NCBI RefSeq assembly: GCF_000008625.1
Contig: NC_000918.1
Coordinates: 210,001-242,000 of the forward strand
DNA: 32,000 nucleotides
Source: Aquifex aeolicus VF5
GTDB lineage: Bacteria; Aquificota; Aquificia; Aquificales; Aquificaceae
Direction: 5' to 3'
This document shows, piece by piece, positions 2,578 through 18,652 of this stretch. Position 1 is the stretch's first letter. Each line of letters opens with the position of its first letter. A program made the translations under genes and the position numbers. The notes below the pieces were generated by a model that was not told where the DNA came from, did no database searches, and saw nothing but the letters and a program-made list of their open reading frames with translations.

Positions 2578-2604
2578 AAAGAAGATTTTACAATTCATTC
2601 CTTG

Positions 2605-3666
2605 ATGCAATTTGAAGTCCTGAAGAGGTTTTTCCCTAAAGAGAGTCTGAAAAATTGCAAAGGAGCTTTATGGGTTCACACAGCAAGTATAGGAGAATTC
2701 AATACTTTCCTACCTATCCTTAAAGAACTAAAAAGAGAACACAGAATTCTGCTCACTTACTTTTCCCCCCGTGCAAGGGAATACCTAAAGACAAAAAGTG
2801 ATTTTTACGACTGCCTTCATCCTCTCCCTCTTGATAACCCATTTTCCGTAAAGAGATTTGAAGAACTATCAAAACCAAAAGCCTTAATAGTAGTTGAAAG
2901 GGAATTCTGGCCCTCTTTAATAATTTTTACTAAAGTTCCCAAAATCCTCGTCAACGCCTACGCAAAAGGGAGTTTAATAGAGAAAATTCTCTCAAAAAAA
3001 TTTGACTTAATAATAATGAGAACTCAAGAAGATGTGGAAAAATTTAAAACCTTTGGTGCAAAGAGGGTATTTTCCTGCGGGAATTTAAAATTCATTTGTC
3101 AAAAAGGAAAAGGGATAAAATTGAAAGGTGAATTCATAGTAGCGGGAAGTATCCACACGGGCGAAGTTGAAATCATTCTAAAAGCCTTTAAAGAAATAAA
3201 AAAGACTTATTCAAGCTTAAAACTGATACTTGTCCCGAGGCATATAGAGAACGCAAAAATCTTTGAAAAAAAGGCGAGGGACTTTGGTTTTAAAACTTCC
3301 TTCTTTGAAAACCTCGAAGGTGATGTTATCCTAGTGGACAGGTTCGGGATACTTAAAGAACTATACCCGGTCGGAAAAATCGCAATAGTTGGCGGAACTT
3401 TTGTAAATATAGGGGGGCATAACCTTCTGGAGCCCACCTGCTGGGGCATTCCCGTAATTTACGGACCTTACACGCATAAAGTAAATGATCTGAAGGAATT
3501 TTTAGAAAAAGAGGGAGCTGGATTTGAAGTAAAGAATGAAACAGAGCTCGTGACAAAACTCACGGAGCTCCTATCCGTAAAGAAAGAGATTAAAGTGGAG
3601 GAAAAATCAAGGGAAATTAAGGGATGTTACTTGGAAAAACTTAGGGAGTTTTTAAGAGGTCTTTAA
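2605..3666 (+). CDS. waaA: 3-deoxy-D-manno-octulosonic acid (Kdo) transferase
   Basis: MQFEVLKRFFPKESLKNCKGALWVHTASIGEF... has GT30 family architecture. From memory it matches the crystallised A. aeolicus WaaA. The ATG at 2605 follows the TTG used by the track at 2602. Confidence 0.9.
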   Translation: MQFEVLKRFFPKESLKNCKGALWVHTASIGEFNTFLPILKELKREHRILLTYFSPRAREYLKTKSDFYDCLHPLPLDNPFSVKRFEELSKPKALIVVEREFWPSLIIFTKVPKILVNAYAKGSLIEKILSKKFDLIIMRTQEDVEKFKTFGAKRVFSCGNLKFICQKGKGIKLKGEFIVAGSIHTGEVEIILKAFKEIKKTYSSLKLILVPRHIENAKIFEKKARDFGFKTSFFENLEGDVILVDRFGILKELYPVGKIAIVGGTFVNIGGHNLLEPTCWGIPVIYGPYTHKVNDLKEFLEKEGAGFEVKNETELVTKLTELLSVKKEIKVEEKSREIKGCYLEKLREFLRGL

Positions 3667-4411: not shown

Positions 4412-4885
4412 AAAAATTATTCTAAAATAGAAACTATGCTGAGACCTAAGGGATTTGACAAATTAGACCACTACTTCAGAACAGAACTGGACATAGACCT
4501 GACCGATGAGACCATAGAACTGCTCCTGAACTCCGTTAAAGCTGCCTTCGGAAAACTCTTTTACGGTGCGGAGCAAAGGGCAAGGTGGAACGGAAGGGAC
4601 TTTATAGCCCTTGCGGATCTGAACATAACCAAAGCTCTGGAAGAACATATCAAAAACTTCCAGAAGATAGAACAAGATATGGGAGTGGACGAGCTCCTTG
4701 AGTACATAGCCTTTATTCCTCCCGTGGAAATGAATGTAGGGGAAGACCTGAAAAGTGAGTACAGGAACATAATGGGCGGACTCCTCCTCATGCACGCGGA
4801 CGTTATAAAGAAGGCAACGGGAGAGAGAAAACCCTCAAGGGAGGCTATGGAGTTCGTAGCCCAAATAGTTGACAAAGTTTTCTAA
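4370..4885 (+). CDS. small helical protein, probable DUF1931 / histone-fold pseudodimer (Aq_328-like)
   Basis: 171-aa ORF from the GTG at 4370. An ATG at 4436 (MLRPKGFDKL...) would remove the 42-nt overlap with the divergent hydrolase gene. Position two genes after waaA and the length fit my recollection of the A. aeolicus Aq_328 histone-fold structure. The fold cannot be proven from sequence by eye. Confidence 0.5.
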   Translation: MQEKYNFGKVSSQHKNYSKIETMLRPKGFDKLDHYFRTELDIDLTDETIELLLNSVKAAFGKLFYGAEQRARWNGRDFIALADLNITKALEEHIKNFQKIEQDMGVDELLEYIAFIPPVEMNVGEDLKSEYRNIMGGLLLMHADVIKKATGERKPSREAMEFVAQIVDKVF

Positions 4886-5843: not shown

Positions 5844-5931
5844 GCCGGAGTGGCGGAACTGGCAGACGCGCCGTCTTGAGGGGACGGTGCCCTTTACGGG
5901 CGTGCGGGTTCGACTCCCGCCTCCGGCACCA
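5844..5931 (+). tRNA. tRNA-Leu (anticodon GAG), class II with long variable arm, CCA encoded
   Basis: Acceptor gccggag/ctccggc, anticodon stem ccgtc/gacgg with loop ttGAGgg, variable arm tgccctttacgggcgt, T arm gcggg-ttcgact-cccgc, 3' ...a-cca. Confidence 0.9.
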
Positions 5932-7783: not shown

Positions 7784-7858
7784 GCGGGCGTAGCTCAGTG
7801 GTAGAGCGGCTGCTTGCCATGCAGCAGGTCGCGGGTTCGAGTCCCGTCGCCCGCTCCA
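7784..7858 (+). tRNA. tRNA-Gly (anticodon GCC), CCA encoded
   Basis: Acceptor gcgggcg/cgcccgc, D loop agctcagtggtagagc, anticodon stem gctgc/gcagc with loop ttGCCat, T loop ttcgagt, discriminator t, then cca. Confidence 0.9.
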
Positions 7859-7866
7859 TATAAAAA

Positions 7867-7941
7867 GGCGACGTGGCCGAGCGGTTAGGCGGGGGACTGC
7901 AAATCCCCTTTACGGCGGTTCGAATCCGCCCGTCGCCTCCA
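7867..7941 (+). tRNA. tRNA-Cys (anticodon GCA), CCA encoded; 8 nt downstream of tRNA-Gly
   Basis: Acceptor ggcgacg/cgtcgcc, anticodon stem gggga/tcccc with loop ctGCAaa, T arm ggcgg-ttcgaat-ccgcc, discriminator t, then cca. Confidence 0.9.
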
Positions 7942-8716
7942 CCAATTCCTTGATTTCTAAAGATAAACAAACAAAACTGGGATTTCTCAAGTCTTCCTTG
8001 TTGTACCTCAAAGGTTCTCTGAGTTTTCCCTCTTCGTAAACGAAGAGTTCACAGCCCGCCTCTTTTGCTACGGCATGCCCCGCTCCCGTGTCCCACTCCA
8101 TAGTTGGGGCAATTCTCGGATATATATCCGCACTTCCTTCCGCAACCATACATATCTTTAGTGAACTGCCCTTTGAAAGGAACTGGAGTTTACCAAATTT
8201 CTTTTCTAAATTTTCGAGGAATTTCTTGGTTTCTTCGTTCATGTGGGAACGGGAAGCCACGACCCTGAGGTTTTCCCTACTCCAATTTCCAATGGGAAGT
8301 TTTTCCATTTTTCCCTTTACCTCTCTGTAAGCTCCGTTCCCTTTCTCGGCAAAGTAAAGCACTTCTAAGGCAGGTGCGTAAACTACTCCGAGAACAGGTT
8401 CTCCTTCCTCTACGAGGGCTACGTTTACGGTAAACTCTCCGTTCTTCTTTATAAACTCCTTCGTCCCGTCCAGTGGATCAACGAGCCAGAACCTTTTCCA
8501 TTTTCTTCTCTCTTTAAAAGGAATTTCCTTTCCCTCTTCCGAGAGTACAGGTATTCTAGTTTCCTTTAACTCTTCCGTTATTATTCTGTGAGCCCTTCTG
8601 TCCGCTTCCGTAACGGGAGTCCTGTCTTCCTTTTCTTCAACTGTGAACTCCTTTGAGTAAACTTCTAAAATTTCCTCACCTGCTTTTTTGCAGGCTTTAA
8701 TCACCTTTTCTAACAT
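7910..8716 (-). CDS. cysQ: 3'(2'),5'-bisphosphate nucleotidase (inositol monophosphatase superfamily)
   Basis: SEE...WKRFWLVDPLDGTKEFIKKNGEFTVNVALV, GSSLKICMVAEG, YPRIAPTMEWDTGAGHAV. This is a strong CysQ pattern. The last ~10 codons are antisense to tRNA-Cys. Confidence 0.85.
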   Translation of the reverse strand: MLEKVIKACKKAGEEILEVYSKEFTVEEKEDRTPVTEADRRAHRIITEELKETRIPVLSEEGKEIPFKERRKWKRFWLVDPLDGTKEFIKKNGEFTVNVALVEEGEPVLGVVYAPALEVLYFAEKGNGAYREVKGKMEKLPIGNWSRENLRVVASRSHMNEETKKFLENLEKKFGKLQFLSKGSSLKICMVAEGSADIYPRIAPTMEWDTGAGHAVAKEAGCELFVYEEGKLREPLRYNKEDLRNPSFVCLSLEIKELVEATGGFEPP

Positions 8717-8719
8717 TCT

Positions 8720-9373
8720 TTACTCCTTTTCAAAAACCTGTATGTAAATGAGTCCTAAAAACTTTCTGCTGAAGTAAATCTCCTTAAAGCCGAAGCTTGT
8801 GAACATTGATCTCGTTTCCTCAGGAGAAAGGCTTTCCTTCAAACTCTTTATAAAGAACTCCCACTTATCCCTGCCGAAGAAGAGAAGACCTACAGGAAGG
8901 AGTAAAGTTTTCATTAAAAGAATCAGAACTCCTGTTCCTTTAAACCTCCCTATGTCTATAATTCCCACCCTAACTTTTTCTTTTCCGACTCTTTTTGCCT
9001 CCTCTAGGAACTTTTCCTTATTTTCAAGGTGTCTGAACACGAGAGAGAGGGAAACCCTATCAAAACTCTTGTCCTTGAAGGGCATATTCTCCGCATCCGC
9101 AAGTAAAAAGTAACAATCCCCGCACTTTTCCTTAGCTCTTCGGAGCATACCGAGGGCTAAATCTATCCCGACTTTGAGGTCAGAGTTTTTTAGTTTTAAA
9201 AGCACTTCCCCCGTTCCCGTTCCGACATCCAGCCAGTTTCCCTCCTCTCCCATCCTCTCTATTAATTCCTTCTGCCACCTGTGTATACCTCCGAAGGTTG
9301 CAAGACTCACGAAAAAGTCGTAAACCTTTGAAGCACCGGAAAATACTTTAGCCATTATTTCCTTTTCAGCCAT
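8720..9373 (-). CDS. class I SAM-dependent methyltransferase, UbiE/MenG-like
   Basis: SKVYDFFVSLATFGGIHRWQKELI resembles the UbiE/MenG YD..N...SFG.HR.W signature. SAM motif I is LDVGTGTGE. 217 aa. Confidence 0.7.
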   Translation of the reverse strand: MAEKEIMAKVFSGASKVYDFFVSLATFGGIHRWQKELIERMGEEGNWLDVGTGTGEVLLKLKNSDLKVGIDLALGMLRRAKEKCGDCYFLLADAENMPFKDKSFDRVSLSLVFRHLENKEKFLEEAKRVGKEKVRVGIIDIGRFKGTGVLILLMKTLLLPVGLLFFGRDKWEFFIKSLKESLSPEETRSMFTSFGFKEIYFSRKFLGLIYIQVFEKE

Positions 9374-9401
9374 AGATGTATTATTCTAATTCTTTACGGA
9401 G

Positions 9402-12400
9402 ATGTTTACCTTTGCTTTGTGTCCACACGATACAGAAGAGAAAAAAGAATTTGAATACTGGGAGAATATAGCAAAGTCAATATCAGAAAAATTAAAAGAA
9501 GATGTAAAGATAATAACTTTTAAAGATTATGCGGAAGAAAAATTAAAACTACCTTCTGCGGATTACGATATTTACTATGCAAATCCGGTAAGCTCTTACT
9601 TTTTATACAAAAAAGGATATAAACCCCTTGCAAGATTAAAAGGGAAAAGGGACAGTTTTGTAATTATTGGATACGAAAATGTAAAAGACCATCAACTTAC
9701 TGTAACGACAACGTACATAGAAACCCATTTGCTTCCCGTTTTAGTTCTGGAGCATTTTGACTTTTTAAAAACCAACATATTTTTCGTTAAAACCCAAAAG
9801 GAAATATACGAAAGCGTAAAAAATAAAAAAGCAGACTTTGGAATAATGTTTGAAGATGCATACAATGAGATTGAAGACGAAGAAAAAGTACCCGTTATCG
9901 TAAAAATACCTTCAAACTTGAGACATACCTTAATGGTAAAACCCGAAATTTATAAAAAACTAAAAGAAGTTATAAAAGAGTTTGAAGAGTTTGAACTGAT
10001 TGATGATAAGGAATTTTTGGAAGGTATAACTGAAAATCTGCCAATATTGGCTTTTTTAAAAACAAAAGAGTTATTCGACGTATCAAAGGCTATTTACAAC
10101 GAGCCTTTTGTTGGGGTTTTAATTTACAGGGATAAAATTGTTTATGCAAATGAAACGATTCAAAAACTAACGGGATACACATTAGAAGAACTTCAAAATT
10201 TACCTTTTGAAGAATTAGTAGCAGAAGAACAAAGAGAAGAAATAAAAGAAGCAGTAAAAAGAAGATTAAGAGGTGAAATTTTTTCAAAAGGTTATGAAAA
10301 CTTAAAAATAAAAACAAAAGACGGAAAATATTTATATACACTTGCCTTTTCAACCACAATGCTTTATAAAAACTCATACGCGGGACTTGTTTTCTTCATA
10401 GATATAACAAAAGAGGTTTTATACCAGAAGCTTTATAAGGCATTGAGAAATGTAAACAGGGCAATAGCAACAGTTTTAACGGAAAAGGAACTTTACAAAA
10501 CAGTTTGTGAAACTCTCGTAAAAGAACTTGATATTAAATTTGCATGGATTGGTGTCCCCGATGAAAAAACGAAAACGTTTAAATCTATATATAAATGCGG
10601 TGAGGAACAGGATTATTTAAAGCATATAAAAATTTATGCAGGAGGAAGTCTTCCAGAGGCAAAAGGACCTACAGGAAGAGCGTACACTGAAGGGAAAATA
10701 GTAATAAACCCTTCAACGGAAGAAAACCCTCTAATGAAACCTTGGAAAGAAGAGATGTTAAAAAGGGGTTTCCTGTCTTCTGCAGCTATTCCTATAATGA
10801 AAAACGGAAAAGTTCATGCGGTATTAAATATATACGCTTCCATTCCTCATTACTTTGATGAGGATATAAGAACTCTTTTAAAGGAGTTAAAACAAGATTT
10901 AAGCTTTGCCCTTGAGAAAATTGAAAGTATTAAGGAATCAAATATCCTGAAAATTGCGATAGAAAACTCTAGAGAGTGGATATTGATAACGGACAAAGAC
11001 GGAAATATAGAGTACGTTAACGATTTCGTTTCAAAATTGACAGGTTATAAAAAAGAAGAACTGATAGGTAAAAAGCCGAGAATTTTTAAGTCTGGATATC
11101 ACCCGAAAGAATTCTATGAAAAACTCTGGAAAACTATCTTATCCGGAAAAAGAGTTTGAGGCTATATTCGCAAACAGAAAGAAAAACGGTGCAATTTTTT
11201 ACATAGAACAAAAAATTATCCCTGTAAAACTCCCGGACGGAGAAATAAAGTTTGTTGCTATAGGAAGGGATATAACTACGGAAATAATGCTTTTAGAGGA
11301 AAACGAAAGGTTGAGATACTACGATGTGTTAACGGATCTTTACAACTATAACGGATTTGCCTTGCAGGTTATAGATTACATTAAAAAAAAATCCCGATAA
11401 TTTATCCGCACTTATATTAATAGACATAGCTGACTTTTCCTACATCAACAAAGTTTACGGATACGATTTCGGAGATGAACTTATAAGAAAAATTGCAGAA
11501 ATATTAAAGAAGAATTTTAAAGAAAGTGATATAATAGGTAGAATTGAGGGAGACTTATTTGCAATATTTGCAAAAAATTTAAAGAAAAAGGAAAATGTAT
11601 TCTCCCTTATAGAAAGGCTTAAGGAAATTCTGGATAAAGATGTTGTCTTTGAAGTAAGGGGCAAAAAATTACATATAATCTTCCACGGAGGCGTGTCTAT
11701 TTATCCGGATGATGGAAAAACCTTTGAGGAACTACTTCAGAACGCCAGGATTGCTTTAAAAGAAGCCAAACAGGAAGGTTATAACGTAGTAAAAATATAC
11801 AATAAAGAACTGGAAAAAAGGCAGAATCTTTCATTTATATAGAAAATCTTCTAACGGAAGCGGTAAAGGAAAACCTATTCGTATTCCATTACCAGCCCAT
11901 CTTTGAAGCAAAAACGGGAAATTTGGCAGGATTTGAGGCACTGGTCAGGATAAAGAAGGAAAGATACATTACCCGAATGAGTTTATAAACTTTCTGGAAA
12001 ATTCCCATTACCTTGATTACTTCAGGGAATGGGCTTTAAAGGAAGTGACGGATAAAATAAAAAAGTGGAAAAAAAACCCATAAGCGTGAACGTAACCGCA
12101 AGGACGTTTAAAAATGAAAACTTCCCGAACGAGTTATTTAAATATGCAAAAGACATTCCTGCACCCCTGATTCTGGAAATAACGGAAAGGATTTACATGG
12201 ACGATGTAGAAACCTCAAGAAAGATTATAAAAAGGTTAAAAGAGAACAAAAATGTAAAAATAGCGATAGACGACTTCGGAACAGGTTACTCGTCCCTTTC
12301 TTACCTGAAGGACATAGATACGGACATCCTGAAAATAGATATGTCTTTTGTAAGAAGAATTGTGGAAGACGAAAAAATAAGGGCGATAGTAAAGGCAATA

Positions 12401-12556
12401 ATAACCCTTGCGAAAGACCTCAACCTCTCAACTCTGGCGGAAGGAGTTGAAACGAAAGAACAGTACGAAATCCTTAAAAGTATGGGAGTTGATTTAGTTC
12501 AGGGATTTTACTTCTCAAAACCCCTGCCTGAAAACGAAGCCCAGCTTTTGATATAA
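9402..12556 (+). pseudogene. multi-domain c-di-GMP signalling protein (PhnD-like binding domain, PAS, GAF, PAS, degenerate GGDEF, EAL), ~1050 codons split by five frameshifts
   Basis: Six collinear in-frame segments: 9402..~11148; ~11152..~11389; ~11390..~11819 (open, stop at 11840-42, no Met codon so absent from the ORF track); ~11820..~11958; ~11964..~12076 (stop 12081-83); ~12077..12556. Joining them gives continuous domain sequence: ...EKLWKTILSGK/EFEAIFANRKKNG..., ...VIDYIKK/NPDNLSALILIDIADF..., ...YNKELEK/KAESFIYIENLL..., ...FEALVRIKK/..GKIHYPNEFI..., ...KIKKWKK/KPISVNVTART.... EAL motifs FEALVR, DDFGTGYSSLSYL, LKIDMSF, EGVET and QGFYFSKP are all present. Confidence 0.8.
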
Positions 12557-12566
12557 GCTAATTTCT

Positions 12567-13340
12567 ATGAGTAAAGAAAAGTACTCCTTTGAAGACCTCA
12601 TAAAGGTTATGGAAGAGTTAAGGAAGAAGTGTCCGTGGGACAGGGAGCAGACCCACGAAAGCTTAAAGAAGTACTTAATAGAAGAAGCTTACGAGGTTCT
12701 GGACGCTATAGACAGCAAAGATGACGAGAAGTTAAAGGAGGAGCTTGGCGACCTCCTCCTTCAGGTAGTTTTCCACTCTCAGATAGCTAAGGAAAGGGGA
12801 GCTTTTGATATAAACGACGTTATAGATACTTTAGTTAAAAAGTTAATAGAGAGGCACCCTCACGTTTTTGGATGCGCAAACCCCGAAGACGTTCTGAAAA
12901 ACTGGGAAAAGAAGAAGATGGAAAAGAGGAAGAGTATATTCGAAGGAATACCGAAGCACCTTCCCGCCCTGATGCGTTCCCAGAAACTTCAGGACAGGAC
13001 TTCTCAGGTAGGCTTTGACTTTCAAGACATAAGTCAGGTATTTGAAAAGATTCAGGAGGAGATAAACGAACTCAAAGAGTCTTTAGAAAAAGGAGACAGA
13101 GAAAATATAAAACACGAGATAGGTGACATTCTTACCGCAGTTGTAGAACTCGCGAGGTTTGTAAACGTGGATGCGGAAGAAGCCCTGCAGGAAGCTAACG
13201 AGCGCTTCATAAGACGCTTTTCCTACATAGAGAAAAAGGCGAAGGAAGAAGGTAGAAAACTGGAAGATATGAGCCTTGAAGAAATGGATAAACTCTGGAT
13301 GGAAGCCAAAAAACTCGAGGAACAAGGAAAACTATCCTAA
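12567..13340 (+). CDS. mazG: nucleoside triphosphate pyrophosphohydrolase MazG
   Basis: CPWDREQTHESLKKYLIEEAYEVLDAI...ELGDLLLQVVFH and a second EXXE-type half (INELKE...EIGDIL). 257 aa tandem MazG domains. Confidence 0.85.
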   Translation: MSKEKYSFEDLIKVMEELRKKCPWDREQTHESLKKYLIEEAYEVLDAIDSKDDEKLKEELGDLLLQVVFHSQIAKERGAFDINDVIDTLVKKLIERHPHVFGCANPEDVLKNWEKKKMEKRKSIFEGIPKHLPALMRSQKLQDRTSQVGFDFQDISQVFEKIQEEINELKESLEKGDRENIKHEIGDILTAVVELARFVNVDAEEALQEANERFIRRFSYIEKKAKEEGRKLEDMSLEEMDKLWMEAKKLEEQGKLS

Positions 13341-14231
13341 AGGTAAGAATTTTGAGAATTCCTTCAGCTTCTCGTACCCCACCACCTCTTCTTTTTGGTA
13401 GGGAATGGATATTTTTTCAATATCCATGAAGTAGTTTTCTATTTCCTTTAAAAACTTTTTTTCCACTTCTTTCCTCGCTTTTAAAAACTCATCCTGTGGA
13501 TTTTCTGGAAGAACCTTATTTATTATGAGAGCTTTTACCCTTATTCCGTAGTGTTTTAAGGAATTTACGAGTCTTTTCGTTTCCTCAAAGGGGAGTTTTT
13601 CGGGAGTAAGTACCGCAAAAAAGTAGGATTTATCGTAAATTATTTCAGAAAACTTTTTGAAACGCTCCTTTCTCTCTTTTAAGTATTCCAGTGCCTCTTC
13701 GTGGACGCTTTTTCCCGACAATTTCTTGAGTTCGTAAACTTTTTCCTTGAGTTTTACTATTTCTTCTAAGAAGTTCCCGAGATTTCTTACGGTTTTTAAA
13801 AGCCCGAGAGTGTGTCCCGTGGGAGCGGTATCCACGACTATGTAGTCGTACTCATTTTCTCTGTACACAACTTCCTTTGAAAGGGCTTCGAAAATAACCA
13901 CGTCCTCTATTCCCGGACTCTCTTCAAGGGAGTGTATAATTCCCTCAAGTTCTCTCAAGGTTTCCTTTCTCAGCGTAGCCTCTGCGAGTTTAAAAACCCT
14001 GCTTCTGTACTCCTTTAATTCCTCGTTCAGATCTATTTCTTTAACTGTCAGGTTTTCGCTCAGTTTCGTTTCTCCTTGAAGTTCTGTGTTAAAAACGTCA
14101 GAAAGGGAGTGGGCTGGATCTGTAGAAAGGAGTAAAACCTTTTTTCCCTGTTCTGATAGCTTTACCGCAAAAGCGGAAGAAGCGGTCGTTTTGCCTACTC
14201 CTCCCTTTCCTCCGAAGAAGAAAACCCTCAT
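13332..14231 (-). CDS. ArsA/GET3-family P-loop ATPase
   Basis: Deviant Walker A GGKGGVGKTT, LLLSTDPAHSLSDVF, VVDTAPTGHTL. Single ArsA-type half, 299 aa. Confidence 0.75.
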   Translation of the reverse strand: MRVFFFGGKGGVGKTTASSAFAVKLSEQGKKVLLLSTDPAHSLSDVFNTELQGETKLSENLTVKEIDLNEELKEYRSRVFKLAEATLRKETLRELEGIIHSLEESPGIEDVVIFEALSKEVVYRENEYDYIVVDTAPTGHTLGLLKTVRNLGNFLEEIVKLKEKVYELKKLSGKSVHEEALEYLKERKERFKKFSEIIYDKSYFFAVLTPEKLPFEETKRLVNSLKHYGIRVKALIINKVLPENPQDEFLKARKEVEKKFLKEIENYFMDIEKISIPYQKEEVVGYEKLKEFSKFLPLG

Positions 14232-18044: not shown

Positions 18045-18652
18045 TTAGGAAGTTGCTTCCGTTTCTCCCGTTTCTTCTGCTCCTGTCTCCTCTTCGCCTA
18101 TTACTTCTTCTTCGGGCTCGTAAACTACCGCTACCGTTTCTTCAGGATTGTCAAGGATCATACATCCTTCGGGAGGTGTTATGTCTCTGACGTGGAGCGC
18201 TTCTCCGAGTCCGAGTCCAGATACGTCAACCACTATTTTTTCGGGTATCTTTGCAGGAGGAGCTTTGATTGTCAATGTGTGCATTACGGGTTCAAACGTT
18301 CCGCCGGCTTCTACACCCGCGGGTGTTCCAACGAATTCAATGGGAACTTCCACTTCAATTTCCTCAACGTTTGAGAGGTCGTACAGGTCGATGTGTATGG
18401 GATTGTTTCCGAGCCAACCGAATTGAATGTCCTTTAAAAGACAAACCCTCGTTTCTCCGTCAAGTTCTGCCTCAATAAGAAAAGCCTCTCCGTGGGGCAA
18501 GAAGCAAAATCTTTAACGTTAATCCAGGCGTGCTTATTCTCAACTCCCTTTCCGTAAATTTCCACAGGGAGCCACCCTTCCCTTCTTTTCCTCTTAAGGT
18601 CGCTCTTCCTTCCGGGTTTCCTTGGTAAAAGCTTAACCTTTACTCTCCTCAT
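18045..18652 (-). pseudogene. rplY: 50S ribosomal protein L25 / general stress protein Ctc, split by one frameshift
   Basis: ORF 18434..18652 gives the L25 N-terminus (RKSDLKRKRREGWLPVEIYGKGVENKHAWINVKDF), then goes out of frame. ORF 18045..18500 continues the family sequence (LPHGEAFLIEAELDGETRVCLLKDIQF...IHIDLYDL...VEVPIEFVGTPAGV...) with an acidic tail. The junction is at about 18497..18512. Confidence 0.75.

Follow-up and report, generated by a model that had tools for sequence, protein, structure and literature searches.

A probably laterally acquired sensor gene in Aquifex aeolicus VF5 that has very probably become a multi-frameshift pseudogene

MorA of Pseudomonas aeruginosa (PDB 4RNH), RbdA (PDB 5XGB) and DosP are composite PAS-GGDEF-EAL phosphodiesterases of cyclic di-GMP (c-di-GMP) whose structures have been solved. 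Genes of this kind are also known in a state of decay: in the survey of Liu, Harrison, Kunin and Gerstein (2004; PMC522871) failed horizontal transfers are over-represented among pseudogenes and GGDEF stands high among the families that are rich in pseudogenes relative to genes, and in Shigella, a host-adapted pathogen where Aquifex is a free-living hyperthermophile, the GGDEF/EAL genes of c-di-GMP turnover are likewise frequent targets of inactivating mutations (PMC11327459). Here we describe a locus of Aquifex aeolicus VF5 (contig NC_000918.1, positions 210,001 to 242,000 of the forward strand; this stretch of 32,000 nucleotides (nt) is called the window, and coordinates below are window positions) which, at 9402-12556, is very probably a genuine multi-frameshift pseudogene of a sensor gene that was most likely acquired laterally. 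Unlike MorA, RbdA and DosP, the Aquifex gene cannot be expressed as a single chain, its GGDEF motif reads IEGDLF and the N-terminus of its protein is a PhnD-like binding domain. It resembles the class of Liu et al. in being a disabled copy of a GGDEF-family gene with intact homologues elsewhere and a codon-position GC content more than two standard deviations (SD) off that of the host genes, but differs from that class in carrying five disablements in about 1 kb and none in its first 1.75 kb, and in that three of its pieces are still annotated as coding sequences (CDSs). The locus seems best read as a failed horizontal transfer that is decaying by replication slippage.

Translated in three frames, 9402-12556 shows six open stretches in alternating frames, each overlapping the next at its end, and the six segments that can be joined across them give a translation of 1052 residues with zero in-frame stops:

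Segment 1, 9402-11159, + strand (open stretch 9402-11156, frame 0): aq_340, 585 amino acids (aa), with the PhnD-like binding domain, PAS1, GAF and the first two thirds of PAS2
Segment 2, 11152-11388, + strand (open stretch 11068-11397, frame +1): last third of PAS2 and linker to GGDEF
Segment 3, 11390-11818, + strand (open stretch 11375-11839, frame +2, 155 codons without Met): GGDEF domain
Segment 4, 11818-11958, + strand (open stretch 11806-11985, frame +1): start of the EAL domain, including the EAL motif (GFEALVR)
Segment 5, 11955-12074, + strand (open stretch 11937-12080, frame 0): middle of the EAL domain
Segment 6, 12074-12556, + strand (open stretch 12056-12553, frame +2): C-terminal two thirds of the EAL domain

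On this strand the list of open reading frames (ORFs) shows only products of 585, 94, 49 and 163 aa at the locus. Segment 1 ends on a TGA produced by the first frameshift, segment 2 falls within the 94-aa ORF 11116-11400, and segment 6 falls within the 163-aa ORF 12065-12556, which lacks the part of the domain that bears the EAL motif. Three of these ORFs have public records as ordinary separate CDSs, namely aq_340 (AAC06634.1 / WP_010880169.1 / O66671, 'PAS domain S-box protein'), the 94-aa ORF (WP_164930586.1, 'hypothetical protein') and the 163-aa ORF (AAC06635.1 / WP_010880170.1, 'EAL domain-containing protein'), and our literature search found no paper that mentions aq_340 or aq_341 in the context of frameshifts or pseudogenes. 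A reading made earlier from the letters of this DNA (the sequence-only reading) had proposed a single collinear gene, some 1050 codons long, that is interrupted by five frameshifts, of which four lie in poly-A runs, with a Met-less stretch of about 150 codons that the ORF track misses; the frame layout, together with the homologue and MorA alignments given below, bears it out on each of these points. The five breaks are as follows:

Site 1, 11147-11151, + strand: A5 run; change at 11147, +1, one A too many
Site 2, 11383-11391, + strand: A9 run; change at 11383, +1, one A too many
Site 3, 11814-11819, + strand: A6 run; change at 11818, -1, one A too few; the restored A7 reads ELEKKAESF
Site 4, 11945-11958, + strand: no homopolymer; change at 11948, -7
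Site 5, 12069-12076, + strand: A8 run; change at 12069, +2 (A6 to A8)

The sizes of the lesions were determined by aligning the DNA globally with that of L003, the closest intact homologue (75.5% nt identity), against which net gaps that change the frame are confined to these five sites, all remaining gaps cancelling pairwise or being multiples of three. The four homopolymer runs lie exactly where they had first been placed and the changes proposed for sites 1 to 3 come out the same in the alignment; at site 1 the homologues read LSGK EFEAIF, ungapped. The last two sites had to be revised. At site 4, for which the loss of a single nt or of a 4-nt repeat unit had been suggested, the window reads GTCAG-------GATAAAGA where the closest intact homologue has GTCAGAATAAAAGATAAAGA, and the 16-residue spacing EALVRIKDKDGKIHYP found in nearly all homologues agrees with a loss of 7 nt, which would be best explained as a deletion between ATAAA direct repeats. 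At site 5, where one A had been thought missing from an A9, two extra A appear the more parsimonious change, because W-x-x-P is found in all eleven homologues that cover the region and the closest of them has TGG AAAAAA CCT, that is, an A6. The runs at sites 2 and 5 are the two longest homopolymers of the window (A9 being the longest); in the restored sequence the longest runs would be the A8 of site 2 and the A7 of site 3, and these would be the first expected targets of a replication slippage that depends on run length. No A-run is present in the closest homologue at sites 1 and 2.

That the pieces belong to one gene is shown by proteins of the same build in other organisms. Among 5.8 billion proteins searched there are many intact homologues of 1042-1062 aa with the same architecture, with identities of 62% (full-length) in Nitratiruptor, 54% in Caminibacter, 51% in Persephonella and 49% in Hydrogenivirga, as well as a 602-aa metagenomic protein (P0018) that is 74% identical over the C-terminal 600 aa; the search returned no protein between 74% and 100% identical, and thus no intact Aquifex allele is public. 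Eleven intact homologues align with no gap at joins 1 to 3 and with a one-residue difference at each of joins 4 and 5, while the restored C-terminal 416 residues align collinearly with MorA (query 2-412 to chain 22-444 of 4RNH, E 8e-61) across joins 2 to 5, with the metal- and substrate-binding residues of the EAL domain conserved. Homology therefore continues across all five joins, which is the check that had been proposed for the collinear reconstruction, and because both the homologues and MorA align across the joins that reconstruction is correct. The comparison had been envisaged with orthologues in other Aquificales; the useful comparators turned out not to be orthologues in Aquificaceae but members of a family that has spread laterally, the closest being low-GC genes of Hydrogenothermaceae and Nitratiruptor.

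The Pfam matches lead to the same arrangement. The restored protein carries Phosphonate-bd (13-193), PAS, GAF_2 (359-505), PAS (519-625), GGDEF (PF00990; residues 639-794, E 4e-29, 101.8 bits against a cut-off of 23.8) and EAL (PF00563; 817-1042, E 3e-63, 213.8 bits against a cut-off of 31.3, model positions 4-236 of 236), and the matches of PAS2, GGDEF and EAL each span joins. Scanned one by one, the single ORFs hold complementary partial domains: the 585-aa ORF ends on PAS model positions 6-70 of 113, the 94-aa ORF has PAS_9 positions 59-102 of 103 and the 163-aa ORF has EAL positions 84-236 of 236. Sites 4 and 5 divide the EAL domain over three frames, so that it is nowhere contained in one uninterrupted frame.

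Errors in homopolymer length are a classic artefact of sequencing, and the reference sequence of A. aeolicus dates from 1998; the sequence-only reading had accordingly offered an artefact as one of its options, with an intact true gene behind a faulty reference. We give this next to no credence. Logan assemblies are built directly from other public read sets and are independent of the reference, and two of them carry all five shifts in a matching broken ORF layout: one (L002; SRR29904084) matches the window over 15.5 kb with 100% identity, and the other (L001; ERR15087784) differs from it by seven transitions and one indel, which lies in rplY, with the five sites unchanged. The only L001 single-nucleotide polymorphism inside the gene, 9644 G>A, falls on a third codon position (GGG to GGA). 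In addition, mazG, the gene that follows the locus, is present on four Logan contigs, of which the two that were read show the broken layout, records of the 49-aa ORF, which stops at site 3, exist for four Logan contigs, and site 4 is a difference of 7 nt rather than a miscounted homopolymer. The disruptions are thus reproduced in independent data, one set of which stems from a slightly different lineage, and an error of sequencing or assembly is thereby rejected. The same comparison bears on phase variation: since no tract differs between L001, L002 and the window, and since no single slip could undo five disruptions, the locus does not behave as a phase-variable contingency locus.

A second frameshift, polymorphic between sequenced A. 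aeolicus stocks, was seen in the gene of ribosomal protein L25/Ctc (rplY; 18045-18652, - strand). In the window and in L002 the gene is frameshifted (CAAG-AAGC, with the indel at about 18500), its first approximately 52 codons being in one frame and the rest in a 151-aa ORF at 18045-18500, whereas in L001 it is intact, 202 aa long, and reads CAAGGAAGC.

Broken reading frames need not always mean broken function, and A-run slippage during transcription, or ribosomal frameshifting, might in principle keep the gene functional at 85-95 degrees C. Of the five shifts, four do lie in A-runs, the A9 and the A8 are long enough for appreciable slippage in other bacteria, the restored frame is stop-free and the EAL residues are intact; as in Thermus dnaX, Citrobacter tssM (PMC4256274) and endosymbiont poly(A) genes (reviewed in PMC5009743), frameshifts are found in long A-runs. 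Those cases, however, involve one long tract, often a conserved one, and programmed slippage would take a single conserved tract of about 8-9 or more A/T that suffices alone, whereas the Aquifex gene has five sites and would need five independent corrections in every transcript or translation, at runs that are not conserved. A homopolymer is missing at site 4, the runs of sites 1 and 3 are short (A5 and A6), no conserved slippery site is present, and the two sites at which the closest intact homologue lacks an A-run are also those that require the loss of one A. In the transcriptomes of E. coli and Buchnera, insertions during transcription climb exponentially with the length of A/T runs, but deletions are seldom seen in homopolymers and there were zero cases of frame restoration (PMC5574713); for slippage in Aquifex itself, our literature search yielded only reviews on dnaX. 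Rescue of the whole gene by recoding therefore strikes us as extremely improbable, and the earlier suggestion that the breaks are partly bypassed by slippage falls with it.

The parent of this pseudogene was most likely, to judge from its motifs, a sensor-regulated c-di-GMP phosphodiesterase with a non-catalytic GGDEF domain, because its EAL residues are intact and its GGDEF motif is IEGDLF. Knowledge of the two families underlies this functional reading of the EAL residues and of the GGDEF motif. Compared with MorA and the homologues, the catalytic and metal-binding motifs of the EAL domain are all present (GFEALVR, SVNVTAR, LEITER, DDFGTGYSS, KIDMSF, EGVET, QGFYF), so that the earlier statement that the domain motifs are well preserved holds for EAL; it does not hold for GGDEF, whose motif is degenerate (EGDLF at 11546-11560, codons GAG GGA GAC TTA TTT) where it is intact in eight of the eleven aligned homologues and in all five loci whose DNA was read. 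Five residues upstream of this motif, the position of the RxxD inhibitory site reads KESD in A. aeolicus and KxxD in the homologues when the alignment is read by eye. No signal peptide or membrane segment was seen in the restored N-terminus, likewise read by eye, which, with a PhnD-like domain that starts at residue 13, would imply a ligand sensor that is cytoplasmic. The locus is, as had been claimed, the only c-di-GMP module in the window, in which tblastn found no further GGDEF- or EAL-like sequence.

Composition and relationships argue that the gene came from elsewhere, most likely by lateral acquisition from a low-GC hydrothermal bacterium. Its GC content is 33% against 42.7% for the window, about 9 points lower; compared with the 26 other genes of the window, its GC at third codon positions (GC3) is 0.317 against 0.494 +/- 0.046 (z = -3.8) and its GC at first positions (GC1) is 0.426 against 0.506 +/- 0.034 (about -2.3 SD), deviations of the kind by which Liu et al. 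(2004) recognize failed horizontal transfers. The nearest relatives, with identities ranging from 59 to 74%, come from a 27%-GC metagenomic contig, a 29%-GC metagenome-assembled genome (MAG) of Hydrogenothermaceae (64%) and Nitratiruptor (62%), and in a neighbour-joining tree, computed with no branch support, the A. aeolicus gene falls, as sister of the 27%-GC metagenomic gene, within a clade of Nitratiruptor and Hydrogenothermaceae genes rather than next to Hydrogenivirga. One may instead suppose that this is a native Aquificota gene, inherited vertically and decayed in place, whose low GC stems from the amino-acid make-up of the family; the family does occur in several Aquificota (Hydrogenothermaceae, Hydrogenivirga and Aquificaceae MAGs), and its members usually lie 1-3 GC points below their own flanks. 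We regard this as unlikely, given that the deficit in A. aeolicus amounts to about 9 points and is strongest at third codon positions, that the copies in Aquificaceae are just 38-49% identical against the 59-74% of the low-GC relatives, and that the Hydrogenivirga copy has a different neighbourhood and is not syntenic. Five metagenomic relatives of mazG (70-86% identity) have no sensor gene within 8 kb of mazG, but as the other neighbours are missing there too, none of them offers a true empty site; the only syntenic contig (L059) begins inside mazG.

The genes on either side of the locus are of normal composition:

UbiE-type methyltransferase gene, 8720-9373, - strand: left flank, divergent, separated by a 28-nt spacer
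mazG, 12567-13340, + strand: right flank, starting 10 nt past the stop of the pseudogene

No promoter-like site was detected between the stop of the pseudogene and mazG (12557-12567), and transcription of mazG may depend on read-through from the dead gene; a scan of 9000-13500 for promoters and terminators gave fewer matches than shuffled sequence. Rfam and tRNA scans found only tRNAs, more than 1.4 kb upstream, and no RNA element at the locus. These are tRNA-Gly(GCC) and tRNA-Cys(GCA) (7784-7941, + strand), which lie about 1.5 kb upstream with two genes of normal composition in between, and the annotated end of the ORF at 7910-8716 (- strand) overlaps tRNA-Cys; no integrase or repeat that would mark an island was seen. 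Farther off, an intact gene at 2602-3666 (+ strand) has a GC3 of 0.366 against the mean of 0.494 and a GC of 37%, and is perhaps another acquired gene. The closest intact homologue is followed (L003 1900-2322) by a 141-aa ORF of 31% GC that is cut by the end of the contig, with no Pfam match and no similarity to the A. aeolicus mazG; its identification as a transposon gene was dropped for want of a Pfam match.

Interruptions were also observed in other members of the family. In Nitratiruptor sp. SB155-2 (AP009178.1; L004 6001-9177) the closest homologue is broken at codon 580 by an in-frame TAA directly followed by ATG (TGG TAA ATG; context ...NNKFW*MIRSGKEF), four to seven codons upstream of the position of A. 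aeolicus site 1, which yields ORFs of 579 and 478 aa; the stop is reproduced in three Logan assemblies (L005-L007), and the interruption may reflect either a nonsense pseudogene or the fission of a gene. In one Hydrogenothermaceae MAG the frame shifts by -1 at about residue 175, with an A7 run where A8 is expected (L009, about 4495-4505), and another has an in-frame TAA at codon 904 (L013 4001-7150). In a Tibetan hot-spring Aquificota MAG the -1 shift lies at residue 621, in AGGGAT (L018, about 5855-5865), and the truncated product is recorded on five contigs. Across the family the first breaks thus fall at residues 175, 580, 584, 621 and 904.

The age of the decay was approached through amino-acid counts rather than dN/dS, because the closest homologue is 25% diverged in DNA and synonymous sites would be saturated. 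At columns conserved in at least 90% of the family, A. aeolicus deviates at 3 of 136, all conservatively; at a 70% threshold it deviates at 5 of 141 columns upstream of site 1, the lowest value in the family, and at 16 of 154 downstream, evenly over PAS2b, GGDEF and EAL (Fisher p = 0.024), whereas intact members mostly show the reverse ratio. In relative-rate comparisons with P0018, A. aeolicus has more unique changes with all ten outgroups (e.g., 71 vs 33), while in comparison with P0002 and P0001, which are both intact homologues, its unique changes are about half as numerous upstream (e.g., 38 vs 87) and equally numerous downstream (49 vs 54). The downstream part has probably been drifting for some time, and the inactivation, which had been called recent, is so only in relative terms, since the stretch beyond the first break already departs from conserved residues more than the stretch before it.

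These same counts lend themselves to a different account, according to which the gene was truncated rather than killed: aq_340, with its 585 codons, would survive as a functional PhnD-like/PAS/GAF sensor that has no output domain, only the GGDEF-EAL part would be decaying, and the overlapping 94-aa ORF, which codes for the missing strands of PAS2, might complement it. All five breaks stand at or after codon 584, and the upstream 1.75 kb contains nine runs of six; the excess of conserved-column departures and the relative rates both set a quiet upstream part against a drifting downstream part; and two other members, SB155-2 and the hot-spring Aquificota MAG, have their first break in PAS2 too. 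Yet such a product would break off inside PAS2 (Pfam PAS positions 6-70 of 113) rather than at a domain boundary, and the only N-terminal-only proteins found among the 5.8 billion sequences are those of just these three disrupted genes. The most slippage-prone runs (the restored A8 and A7) are downstream in any case, and under full neutrality the probability that all four later indels fall downstream is 0.04-0.34, according to how steep a dependence of slippage on run length is assumed; the clustering in PAS2 of the first breaks is marginal (P = 0.04 and 0.08), and these statistics come from small counts. We judge such a truncation to be improbable, and we find it equally hard to favor the more specific proposal that aq_340 is under purifying selection as an output-less sensor and that SB155-2 and the hot-spring MAG took the same route independently. 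If aq_340 were retained, it would point to a recurrent, selected cut inside PAS2 of a vent-bacterial sensor family.

Several considerations nevertheless weigh against the view of aq_340 and its downstream pieces as one dead, acquired gene. We infer the absence of a full-length product from the DNA; the first 584 codons are intact and near the family consensus, which leaves room for a retained N-terminal product. Given that 5.9% of random substitutions would create a stop, and that the probability of finding none is 0.38 at 20 substitutions and 0.16 at 40, the stop-free restored frame hints either that the time of drift was limited or that some constraint persists. To our knowledge, all sequenced A. 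aeolicus stocks derive from one isolate, and with such an ancestry the breaks could be older or younger than the isolation. Finally, the closest sampled relative of this putatively transferred gene is just 74% identical.

With these points in the balance, a multi-frameshift pseudogene of an acquired sensor gene is still what we consider very probable. In such a course of events, an AT-rich parent gene would have been acquired laterally from a low-GC hydrothermal bacterium and then disabled by slipped-strand changes in A-runs (+1, +1, -1 and +2) and by one 7-nt deletion between short direct repeats, mechanisms that the sequence context of the lesions suggests. Translation from the ATG at 9402 would then give only a 585-residue product that ends inside PAS2 without both output domains, and, as the downstream pieces cannot be joined to it, the locus would be expected to give no c-di-GMP synthesis or breakdown.

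These findings call for a correction of the annotation: three CDSs in the public records are pieces of a single dead gene, and a census of signalling in A. aeolicus should not enter aq_340, the 94-aa product and the 163-aa product as c-di-GMP or PAS proteins in their own right. They also provide a small and clean example of how an acquired AT-rich gene decays through slippage at its longest A-runs in the compact genome of a hyperthermophile, as well as an example of probable gene exchange between Aquificota and Campylobacterota at vents. This is an ordinary fate for such genes, and it leaves our current understanding unchallenged.

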